This document shows, in pieces, positions 3,001-6,000 of a stretch of 64,000 nt of DNA. The stretch's first letter is position 1; the number at the start of each line of letters is the position of its first letter. Location: the NCBI RefSeq assembly GCF_017348835.2, contig NZ_CP071375.1. One strand, given 5' to 3'. Position numbers: made by a program. Origin of the DNA: Escherichia coli. GTDB taxonomy: Bacteria; Pseudomonadota; Gammaproteobacteria; Enterobacterales; Enterobacteriaceae.

Positions 3001-6000
3001 CGGAAAGTGATGGTAAGGCCTTTCCTCAGCCAGCAGGTGCTGCGTTACCAGTCCGGGAAGCCGCAACACAGGAAGAAATTAAAACAGAAACTGTGGCGGA
3101 CATTGTGCAGCCGTTGCCATCGTTTACCGAAACGCAAGCAGATGAGCTGATTTTTCCGTCCCTTCGCAGGGCAAACCTGGCGCTGCGCAGGGCGAAAAGT
3201 GATGTTCAGAAGTGGGAGCGAGTCTGCGCCGCGCTGCGGGAGCTGAACAAGTGCCGGGATATTCTCCGGGATATTACCGCCACCAGAGAACAGCAGCGGT
3301 GAGTGGGTGGAAGACGTGGTGCCGGGCGGAAATCATGATACTCCGGCAGTGTGCGGGAACGAGGAAGGTAAAAAGCGTTGGCGCACTTATCGGACGAACT
3401 GAAGCGGCAGTGAGAACGAAGGCACGGGAGCTGGGCATCAGCATGATGTTACGTGGTGATTTTCACCCGTCGGCAAAATATTCTCAGCGTGATATTGAGC
3501 TGGCGCGGCAACTGCATCAGAGAGGCATGCAAAGAAGGGAAATTGCCAGAAAATTAGGCATGCCGCTGCGCATAGTGAATAACTACGTTTATTTCGACAG
3601 GAGGGTGTCTGCGTGAAAATCCTGTATCAGGATTACGGCCCGGTGGGGCAGGTGGTTATCAGCAGTACTGTAATGGAGTTTCGGAAGCATAACCGTGTGG
3701 TGGATGCTGTGCTGTTAACCTGTCCGGGGATATCGGCGAGTCGTGCAGGTGTGTTTATTATGAAGACGAAATTATATGGCAGTAAGGCGTGGATAAAGAA
3801 GGCGTATCGTGTAGCGTTGCAGGAGGTTAACAGTGAGTGAAATTAAAGAAATGCCGGTAGTTCGTGACGGATATGGCAACTGGACACATCCTGAATATGA
3901 AAAATTCTGTGATGGTCGGGAATATATTTCAACGGAAGAGTTTAACGCCTGGATGGAGGAAAATAATCTTCAATACGTCCTCTGCTTCAGAGATGAAGGA
4001 TGTGCTGACCTTGATGCGTGTGATGCTGATATTTCTGCATGGGAACCGGAACGACCAGAGGGCGATGGCTGGTTTATTGGTTCCATTCATGATACGGAAG
4101 ATGGCCCGGTTGTGTCTGGTTGCGAAATAAGGCTGAAGCATAAAGGCGATAAACCAACTAACAACTAAATACTGAAGATTTAAATCAGAAACGATTTTTA
4201 TTAAATCCTTAACCGGAGGGATTCCTGCACCCTCAGAACATCAGGAGGCCGCCCGAAAGGGCGGTAAGAAATGAAACATTATTTAGAAAAAAATTACCCA
4301 CGAAAGAGCAGAGCAACAGAGTTTCTGTTTTTCATTCTGTTTATAGTGTTGATGATACCGATATCCCCGCTATTACTGGTCTGGATAATTGGAAGGACAT
4401 TTGAACCAGTTATTGAGCTATATACCGATGTGACATGGGAATCATTCAGCGCACTGCACAATAAAATTAATCCGTATAAGGAAAACTGATATGAGCACTA
4501 TTACCAGAGAACGCGCGGAGATTAAATCATACATCACAGGCTTCCTGAGCGACTCGGCGCACGATAACAAGTCTTCAGACAGCCTGCTGGCTAATGTGTT
4601 TCGTATCGCGCTGGCATCACTGGAAGCAGAGCCGATAGCAATGGTAGTGCCTGATGAAATGGATTTGCTTACCTGCCATCTCGACGGTGTAACTAAAACA
4701 TATGCTGATGGCTGGAACGCCTGCCGCGTCGCCATGCTTCAGGCCGGAAACTTTCGGGAAAATAAGAATTCGTCAACCAACAATTTTCGGGAAATCTCGG
4801 AAACGTCAACCAGATCTCCGATAACTCTGGATGGCTGGATAAGCTGTACTGAGCGAATGCCTGAAAAGAGCCAGAACGTGCTTATTTCGATGAATATCGA
4901 TAGCGAGGCTGGGCCATTAATATATTCCGCACGCTATCTCGGAGGCACGTTCCGGCGCGGAGGTATAGCAGTTAGTCCGGGTAATGATCTTAGGCAAGCA
5001 ACCCACTGGATGTCGCTACCAGAACCGCCGCAGGAGGTGAATCAATGACCTGGCCTGAAGCATTCACAACGGTAGGAATTGCGATGGCGGTGGCGCTGGT
5101 GGTGTATTCGATTTGCCGCTGGGGATAAAAACGGTTTGCGGGAAAAGGATAGTTAAGTAGAATTGCTGCGGGTGCTTGAGGCTATCTGCCTCGGGCATGA
5201 ACACCAACGGCAGATAGAGAAAAGCCCCAGTTAACATTACGCGTCCTGCAAGACGCTTAACATTAATCTGAGGCTCAATCCATGCTGAACACATGTAGGT
5301 TAGCCTCTTACGTGCCGAAAGGCAAGGAGAAGCAGGCTATGAAGCAGCAAAAGGCGATGTTAATCGCCCTGATCGTCATCTGTTTAACCGTCATAGTGAC
5401 GGCACTGGTAACGAGGAAAGACCTCTGCGAGGTGCGAATCCGAACCGGTCAGACGGAGGTCGCTGTCTTCGTAGACTACGAATCTGAGAAGTAAGAGACC
5501 AGGCGGGGGAGTAATCTCCCGCCACCTCTGATGTGTCAGGCATCCTCAACGCACCCGCGCTTTACCATACTGAAAATGCTGTTTGAATGTTCATCTCTGA
5601 AAGAGGACTATGAATGAAAAAGGTATTGATTGCAGCACTTATTTCCGGTGTGTCTTTTGGCGCTTTTGCACAGCAGGGTGGTTTCCAGGGGCCAGAAGCA
5701 GAGCGTTCAACAGTAGCGCAGGCAAAAGAACTGAAGGATGATGCATGGGTTATCCTTGAAGGGAGCATCGTTAAAAAAGTGGGTGATGAACGTTATGAGT
5801 TTCGTGACAATAGCGGGACAATTGTCACGGATATTGATGACAGCGTATGGGCCGGGCAGAATGTTTCTCCGAAAGACAAAGTAAGAATTGAGGGTGAAAT
5901 TGATAAAGACCTGAGCAGTGTTGAAGTTGATGTAAAGGCACTGAAATTATTAAAGTAACCGCCCCTGCTTGTTAAGCCCGTCTTACTGACGGGTTTTCTG

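Follow-up and report, generated by a model that had tools for sequence, protein, structure and literature searches.

A hokW/mokW/sokW-type toxin-antitoxin locus carrying the elements of the hok/sok RNA switch in an Escherichia coli prophage

A prophage carried by the Escherichia coli contig NZ_CP071375.1 contains, between its replication genes and its antiterminator gene Q, a type I toxin-antitoxin locus of the hok/mok/sok class, which we describe here within a 64,000-nucleotide stretch of that contig (the window, whose positions are used throughout). Two open reading frames (ORFs) on the plus strand have the same frame and a common stop codon: a hok ORF of 51 amino acids at 5339–5494, whose product is MKQQKAMLIALIVICLTVIVTALVTRKDLCEVRIRTGQTEVAVFVDYESEK, and a mok-like ORF of 70 amino acids at 5282–5494 that extends it upstream. 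An earlier note on this DNA, made from the sequence alone, had proposed both the toxin and its in-frame Mok-like extension, and both stand as proposed. The Pfam family HOK_GEF (PF01848) matches residues 25–66 of the 70-amino-acid ORF over the full 42-position model (E 1.3e-22), and the LCE of the R-x-x-LCE motif conserved among Hok/Gef toxins is present. The toxin is identical to HokW of phage 933W and is called a Hok/Gef family protein in RefSeq genomes, and the longer ORF, whose start codon lies within the Sok target, has the same position as the annotated mokW of 933W. In an Rfam scan of the whole window, RF01794 matched from end to end (model 1–157 of 157) at 5170–5344 on the plus strand with 113.5 bits (gathering score 59; E 4.8e-25); the family is titled 'sok antitoxin', but what it models is the open fold of the hok mRNA leader. 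A tac-like motif occurs in a single instance in the window. On the strength of the ORFs, the Pfam and Rfam matches and the single tac-like motif, the hok/mok/sok observation is confirmed as real at these coordinates, far beyond chance.

The putative promoter of the mok/hok mRNA occupies 5135–5163 on the plus strand, with a weak -35 element TTTGCG (5135–5140), a 17-bp spacer and a -10 element TAGAAT (5158–5163) that lies 6 nucleotides from a predicted start at 5170. R1/F-type loci have the same geometry (TATGAT, 6 nucleotides, then GGCGCUUGAGG), and by homology with them 5170 is the probable first nucleotide and TAGAAT the probable -10; the Rfam model also begins at 5170. The full-length mRNA would be about 394 nucleotides long (5170–5563), with its 3' end predicted just past the fold-back inhibitory element fbi, at GCGCUUUA. 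The interval 5220–5530 first given for the locus does hold hok and mok, but with the -10 at 5158–5163, the start at 5170 and fbi at 5544–5556 the functional unit is wider, at about 5135–5563.

Along this mRNA the elements of the hok/sok RNA switch occur in order, all on the plus strand. The translational activator element tac, GGGUGCUUGAGG, forms the 5' end (5170–5181); it pairs with fbi in the full-length minimum free energy (MFE) structure and with ucb in the isolated 5' domain and the Rfam structure. A metastable 5' hairpin (mRNA nucleotides 3–13 with 19–29; 5172–5198), which appears in the MFE structure of the truncated RNA, would hold tac in the nascent transcript. The ucb or anti-Shine-Dalgarno element AAGCCCC (5222–5228) changes partners between the two forms: it pairs with the mok Shine-Dalgarno (SD) sequence when the RNA is closed and with tac when it is open. 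That SD, GAGG at 5270–5273, stands 8 nucleotides ahead of the mok ATG and is the counterpart of the GAGG mok SD motif of R1; in the open form GAGGC (5270–5274) pairs with dcb, GCCUC (5303–5307), and the hairpin so formed presents the loop CUGAACA (5285–5291), with a YUNR-type CUGA, which is likely the first contact of the single-stranded 5' tail of Sok. The hok SD, AAGGAG at 5324–5329, lies 9 nucleotides ahead of the hok ATG and overlaps the sok -35 on the opposite strand. Beyond the toxin gene, a stem-loop GGCGGGGGAG UAAU CUCCCGCC at 5502–5523 would end and protect the processed, translatable mRNA, and fbi, CCUCAACGCACCC at 5544–5556, is the complement of tac with one bulged C.

The antisense RNA that the earlier note expected on the minus strand can be placed from the sokW feature of 933W, whose features were moved to the window by a constant offset (933W segment position + 2283). 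This gives a SokW-type RNA of 71 nucleotides running from 5290 to 5220 on the minus strand, composed of a 14-nucleotide single-stranded 5' tail, a long hairpin and then CUUUU, with a predicted fold of -30 kcal/mol (z = -5.0). Complementary to both the CUGAACA loop and the mok start codon, the tail would probably recognize them in the R1 manner. The sok promoter lies on the minus strand from 5325 to 5297, with a -35 element TTGCCT (5325–5320), a 17-bp spacer and a -10 element TAACCT (5302–5297), 6 nucleotides from the start at 5290. The oligonucleotides with which Takada et al. (PMC8621323) studied hokW-sokW of prophage Sp5 bear directly on this placement. Three of them match the window exactly, including both northern probes: YO-592, the sokW probe, is window 5261–5290; YO-597, the hokW probe, is the complement of 5298–5327; and YO-422 is the complement of 5270–5295. 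The mutagenic primer YO-421 alters t5296, a5297, t5300 and a5302, positions in the minus-strand TAACCT(A), the sok -10, and this target settles the promoter placement, which had been left open when the locus was first noted. Mutation of a promoter of identical sequence abolished sokW activity, and the block is conserved in the 12 loci compared below. No LexA-type box (CTG-N10-CAG) that might account for the RecA dependence seen in Sp5 was found when the sok promoter was inspected by eye; CTGAACACATGTAGG ends in GG, not CAG.

Predicted folding of the mRNA agrees with a two-state switch and bears out the structured leader that had been reported. RNA 5170–5563 has an MFE of -162.6 kcal/mol (z = -7.4 against 100 dinucleotide-preserving shuffles), and the structure is closed by 5'–3' pairing of tac with fbi. 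The tac/fbi duplex, of 12 pairs and one bulge, scores -21.5 kcal/mol, a value reached by 0 of 500 shuffles of the 3' region (mean -12.6, standard deviation 2.1). In this closed form 5223–5226 of ucb are paired with 5272–5275, which include the GG of the mok SD. The open form appears when the domains are folded separately: isolated 5170–5228 gives the tac/ucb stem with an inner hairpin at -26.8 kcal/mol (the metastable 5' hairpin was evaluated at -18.8 kcal/mol), and isolated 5270–5307 gives the SD/dcb hairpin with its CUGAACA loop, both in agreement with the Rfam consensus structure.

Both structures are kept in related loci. We compared 12 full hok mRNAs, namely that of the window, hokD of strain BL21, two other chromosomal copies, an IncY plasmid copy and seven R1/F-type plasmid loci from E. 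coli, Enterobacter, Citrobacter, Cronobacter and one further enterobacterium, in an alignment with 71% mean identity. The best complement to the mRNA 5' end, fbi, falls between +354 and +384 in every one of them, and the ucb pairings are retained throughout. The closed form leaves 90.3% of alignment cells paired, against 39–50% when the partners are slid, and the open form 98.4% against 44–62%; by element, the three core ucb/SD pairs are paired in 92–100% of cells, tac/ucb in 98.7% and SD/dcb in 95%. RNAalifold run on the same alignment independently recovered tac/fbi, the inner 5' hairpin, SD/dcb and the 3' hairpin, with compensatory changes in 15 of its 59 pairs and in 7 of the 9 pairs of the 3' hairpin. 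One such change within tac/fbi (U-A to C-G, alignment columns 4/422) splits the hokD/W clade from the R1 clade, and since this position is bulged in the tac/ucb stem, the covariation speaks specifically for tac/fbi. The CAAGGAG block that contains the hok SD is invariant in all 12. Thus the conserved fold-back elements, whose absence the earlier note had named beforehand as refuting, are present. Some other loci were set aside: hokC, hokE and hokA of K-12 are unusable as tac/fbi references because IS186 or IS150 interrupts them, and the 'best fbi' found for K-12 hokC (-17.9 kcal/mol) is probably spurious; K-12 hokB and matches on Salmonella and Scandinavium plasmids were dropped because simple patterns gave no tac or LCE match.

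All of the defining elements of a hok/mok/sok locus are therefore found in the window, and we conclude, with a probability of roughly 0.9, that this is an intact and almost certainly functional hokW/mokW/sokW type I toxin-antitoxin allele with the canonical hok/sok RNA switch. It could instead be a silent relic like the hok loci of K-12, with recognizable sequence and lost expression or regulation. Chromosomal hok loci are indeed often disabled: IS186 lies just past the K-12 hokC and hokE ORFs, mokA of K-12 is a pseudogene interrupted by IS150, and K-12 hokD is without leader and sok; moreover, a consensus promoter scan of 5000–5700 called no promoter in the window. The window locus, however, is without insertion sequence, truncation or frameshift, with all elements intact and in register, and in its ORFs and both of its promoters it is the same as the Sp5/933W copy, an expressed and active locus. 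Within the mRNA it differs from that copy just at a loop base, 5247, and at 5502, where the change adds a G-C pair to the 3' hairpin. We consider a relic extremely improbable.

Several points weigh against the conclusion that the window allele is a working switch. The NCBIfam Hok subfamily model matches the toxin (E 1.5e-14) with 53.6 bits, below its curated cut-off of 73. The scan just mentioned, which covered consensus promoters and terminators, made zero calls, as both promoters are weak against consensus (the hok -35 and the sok -10 TAACCT each have 3 of 6 positions); it was blind to the sok promoter because the score of that promoter is too low. Only three U residues follow fbi, and the start sites, like the 3' ends of the full-length and the processed mRNA, are predicted by homology. 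The 12 sequences compared are essentially two clades, and tac/ucb and SD/dcb are near-invariant in them, so that these two pairings are compatible with the model and give little or no covariation evidence. Finally, the MFE structure of the truncated RNA contains the metastable 5' hairpin instead of the expected tac/ucb stem. The refolding order is thus not reproduced by a single MFE, and since the tac/ucb stem does form in the isolated 5' domain, we take the whole-RNA MFE as uninformative on that order.

The family itself is already known: hokW/sokW was annotated in 933W in 1999 (the record carries mokW, hokW and 'SokW antisense RNA'), is recognized by Rfam, appears in RefSeq as a Hok/Gef family protein and was characterized experimentally in 2021. 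What is added here is the coordinates of the whole unit, the placement of the sok RNA and its promoter, the verification of the RNA elements and a position of the cassette unlike that in 933W. This has some practical value, since genome annotation pipelines capture only the 51-amino-acid coding sequence and so miss the mok frame, the sok RNA and every RNA element as far as 5556.

The working of the prototype, hok/mok/sok of plasmid R1, suggests how the window locus may act. In the R1 model the full-length mRNA is closed by the end-to-end tac/fbi stem with ucb over the mok SD; 3' trimming removes fbi, upon which tac pairs with ucb and the mok SD with dcb, and the refolded RNA is both translatable and a target of Sok, while the metastable 5' hairpin prevents premature activation (Le Rhun et al. 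2023; PMC9841398). By analogy, the promoter ending at 5163 would give the mok/hok mRNA from 5170 to about 5563, with tac held in the 5' hairpin during transcription. In the finished RNA tac would be paired with fbi and the mok ribosome-binding site lie under ucb, and these two pairings would make the RNA stable, untranslatable and no target for Sok. Slow trimming of the 3' end back to the 5502–5523 hairpin would remove fbi; tac would then pair with ucb, and the mok ribosome-binding site would enter the dcb hairpin that presents the CUGAACA loop. Mok would now be translated, and the passage of ribosomes through the hok ribosome-binding site would switch on hok unless Sok were bound, in which case Sok, covering the mok ribosome-binding site and start codon, would block translation and mark the duplex for RNase III. 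Once the Sok supply ended, the 51-amino-acid Hok would insert in the inner membrane and kill or lyse the cell. The transcript ends, the 3' processing and the order of refolding in the window copy are all presumed from these related systems.

In this scheme mok is a coupling device. The true product might instead be the 70-amino-acid Mok-Hok fusion from 5282, with no separate 51-amino-acid toxin, as could be argued from the shared frame and stop codon, an arrangement also found in mokC/hokC and unlike that of R1-type loci. Yet hok has its own strong SD, AAGGAG, 9 nucleotides upstream and invariant in the 12 loci; the 51-amino-acid ORF is toxic when expressed alone (PMC8621323); and in R1 translation of mok is needed only as far as the hok start region (PMC9841398). 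A fusion product is accordingly very unlikely, and coupling of a separate Hok to mok is the reading we keep.

Much of what can be said of the function comes from Sp5 (PMC8621323). There HokW is toxic on induction, and the 51-amino-acid ORF suffices; sokW expressed from its own promoter neutralizes it, an effect that depends partially on RNase III and Hfq and is abolished by mutation of the -10; and both RNAs are detected by northern blot. Treatment with mitomycin C leads to a fast loss of sokW RNA, followed by a buildup of HokW in the inner membrane that depends on RecA. Deletion of the Sp5 locus delayed growth arrest by about 40 min and halved phage release (PMC8621323). As the window protein is identical and the locus 99% identical, toxicity, neutralization and membrane location would be expected of the window copy as well, and its most likely physiological role is to speed host lysis and phage release after prophage induction. 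Against this role stands that it was shown in Sp5, another prophage with the locus at another position, as a two-fold effect, and may not transfer.

The earlier note had suggested post-segregational killing or phage defence. The toxin-antitoxin function itself stands; the role demonstrated for hokW is the help to lysis and phage release, and not either of those. A locus that works mainly to stabilize the prophage by killing cells that lose it, or to abort infection, would nonetheless fit some of the facts. The R1 hok/sok is the classic post-segregational killer and lowered the plating of T4 (PMC9841398), the cassette of about 1 kb that contains the window locus (5030–6005) is found at two unrelated prophage positions and on plasmids, as a selfish or accessory module would be, and O157-type chromosomes have 5–8 hok-like places among the matches listed. 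However, deletion of hokW-sokW from Sp5 gave no growth phenotype and changed only lysis timing and phage yield after induction (PMC8621323), PADLOC defence models matched none of Hok, the neighbouring ygiW-like protein and the 27-amino-acid ORF described below, and a chromosomal prophage is rarely lost, which leaves few opportunities for post-segregational killing. We regard stabilization or defence as a serious possibility but an unlikely main role, and assistance to lysis as the better supported one.

Sequence matches show how common this locus is. Many O157:H7, O121 and other Shiga toxin-producing E. coli chromosomes carry the 521 nucleotides 5100–5620 at 100% identity, and of 5426 complete E. 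coli genomes 4715 have matches to the locus, at a median of 2 and at most 10 places each. The best matches among phage records are Shiga toxin (Stx)-converting phages at 99.0–99.2%, including 933W (AF125520). In a pairwise alignment 515 of the 521 nucleotides (99%) agree with 933W, and none of the six differences lies in mok or hok: three (5101, 5116 and 5123) are in an upstream 27-amino-acid ORF, one (5150) is in the spacer of the hok promoter, and the last two are 5247 and 5502. T5247 is in the apical loop of both the Sok hairpin and the Sok target. G5502 forms the extra G-C pair at the base of the 3' hairpin, which in the window has 9 pairs and -19.8 kcal/mol in context, versus 8 pairs and -16.2 kcal/mol in the 933W allele; the corresponding hairpin protects the processed mRNA in R1 (PMC9841398). 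These two alleles could slightly shift the stability of the toxin mRNA or the cross-talk between copies.

Among named systems the closest is thus hokW/mokW/sokW of the Stx2 phage 933W and the Sakai prophage Sp5 (AF125520; PMC8621323): both of its proteins, HokW and MokW, have the same sequence as in the window, and its hok and sok promoter elements, tac, ucb, dcb, fbi and 3' hairpin are likewise as in the window; the flanking 27-amino-acid ORF and ygiW-like gene are common to both. The first suggestion, to align the locus with hokC/gef and hokD, did point to relatives, but the nearest named one is hokW and K-12 hokD is a poor reference. The Qin-type hokD (relF) belongs to the same subgroup: 47 of the 51 toxin residues are identical, with the 4 differing residues C-terminal, and in most E. 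coli, BL21 among them, the DNA encoding the entire mRNA shows 92–95% identity. It has DUF968 (ydfU) and Q downstream, as in the window, and rem next downstream, where the window has the ygiW-like gene. K-12 hokD, behind relBE, has lost the mok start together with the whole leader and sok, and its match does not begin until window 5325; for the leader it is therefore of little use. A relB-relE-hok arrangement like that of K-12 hokD is also found at 1–588 of the Klebsiella pneumoniae IncHI1B/FIB plasmid p504051-HI3, where the junction just upstream of the hok SD encodes the same hok-frame peptide as in K-12 Qin (…DTSALR*QEK…) and the toxin is R1-like, not HokD-like. A shared junction with different toxins makes the leaderless relBE-hok fusion seem a recurrent or mobile arrangement.

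K-12 hokC (gef)/mokC/sokC resembles the window in having mok in frame with hok, the same tac (GGGUGCUUGAGGCU), a similar layout and an annotated sokC; its toxin, of 50 amino acids, is more divergent, and the IS186 just past the ORF removes the fbi context. The R1 hok/mok/sok and F flm loci have the same architecture with the RNA elements at the same distances (the seven plasmid loci have fbi at +375 to +384, the window at +373); they share the blocks AAAGCCCC, GCCUCUUAC and CAAGGAGAAG with the window and keep both alternative structures. Their mok frame differs from that of hok, whereas the two share a frame in the window; the R1 5' stem-loop has about 16 nucleotides more, and the Sok hairpin of R1 is shorter than that of the 71-nucleotide Sok of the window. 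R1 Sok has a length of 64 nucleotides. The setting of these prototypes is a plasmid and their role post-segregational killing, and their toxins are 44% identical to that of the window in the alignment of Takada et al. (PMC8621323), or 42–44% in tblastn searches against Hok of R1/F-type plasmids.

The genomic context was read from a bovine E. coli chromosome that matches window 1–14000 at 99.9%, in whose annotation all genes are on the plus strand. Upstream are genes for a helix-turn-helix protein, YdaT, replication proteins and DUF1627, with further genes to DUF4014 and DUF551; from hok the order is Hok, the ygiW-like gene, a hypothetical ORF, DUF968 (ydfU-like), RusA and the antiterminator, followed by tRNAs, TerB, DUF3927, DUF6645, holin, YdfR and lysozyme. 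Since hok has the replication genes on one side and Q on the other, all on one strand, the 'nin region' of the earlier note is an acceptable description, and the likeness to Qin also proposed there (hokD near ydfU and Q) agrees with the gene order of K-12 Qin, relB-relE-hokD-rem-ydfU-ydfT(Q), and with that of BL21, where an intact hokD locus lies between DUF977 and rem/DUF968/Q.

The cassette has a different position in 933W. A block of 976 nucleotides with 97.3% identity, comprising the 27-amino-acid ORF, hok/sok and the ygiW-like OB-fold gene with its signal peptide, is common to window 5030–6005 and 933W (segment 2747–3722); in 933W it is at the right end near attR, past the tail genes, and in the window it is in the early right region, between DUF551 and DUF968/RusA/Q. 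These two positions make it a small mobile accessory module. Proximity to attR in a Stx-converting phage, a trait of 933W/Sp5, is not shared by the window locus, but location does not define the hokW/sokW family and the difference shows only that the cassette is mobile.

The presence of the cassette at two positions in lambdoid prophages suggests that induction may switch on the toxin by way of read-through from an early operon. At both positions the cassette has the sense direction downstream of such an operon, which in 933W is N-antiterminated. The window has it in the rightward early operon; in 933W/Sp5 it is on the same strand as N-xis-int, just beyond attR, so that a leftward antiterminated pL transcript would enter it via attP after excision and circularization. 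Going by these gene orientations, the placement might serve as an induction sensor, with read-through colliding with the convergent weak sok promoter and shutting off Sok, an idea that is speculative and probably incorrect. If true, it would explain the rapid RecA-dependent loss of sokW RNA after induction, the cause of which Takada et al. left unexplained (PMC8621323), and a plasmid-addiction module would have been turned into a phage lysis timer.

Other features of the region were observed along the way. The ORF that travels with the hok cassette (5045–5128, plus strand; MTWPEAFTTVGIAMAVALVVYSICRWG) is unannotated, hydrophobic and 27 amino acids long; it overlaps the DUF551 stop at an ATGA, ends 30 nucleotides before the hok -10, and is open with equal length in 933W, with 6 amino-acid changes. 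It has no match in NCBIfam (or, as above, PADLOC), and could be a small membrane protein or a product of chance. After the antiterminator gene are two phage-borne tRNAs on the plus strand, at 8752–8827 and 8928–9004. The one with a CAT anticodon is called Met by ARAGORN and Ile by RefSeq; presumably lysidine modification causes it to be read as Ile. The other is tRNA-Arg (TCT). Downstream of Q and these tRNAs, where Stx phages carry stx, Rfam finds the small RNA STnc100 (145.8 bits; 9774–9966, plus strand) and, abutting it on the minus strand, the anti-small-RNA AgvB (96.5 bits, a perfect match to the consensus; 10028–9967); the annotation of the matching chromosome shows no stx gene after Q. 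Finally, upstream of the cassette, an ORF of 111 amino acids at 3833–4168 on the plus strand is intact in the window; at 3833–4143 the annotation of the closest RefSeq genome (88_1577) has a frameshifted pseudogene instead.

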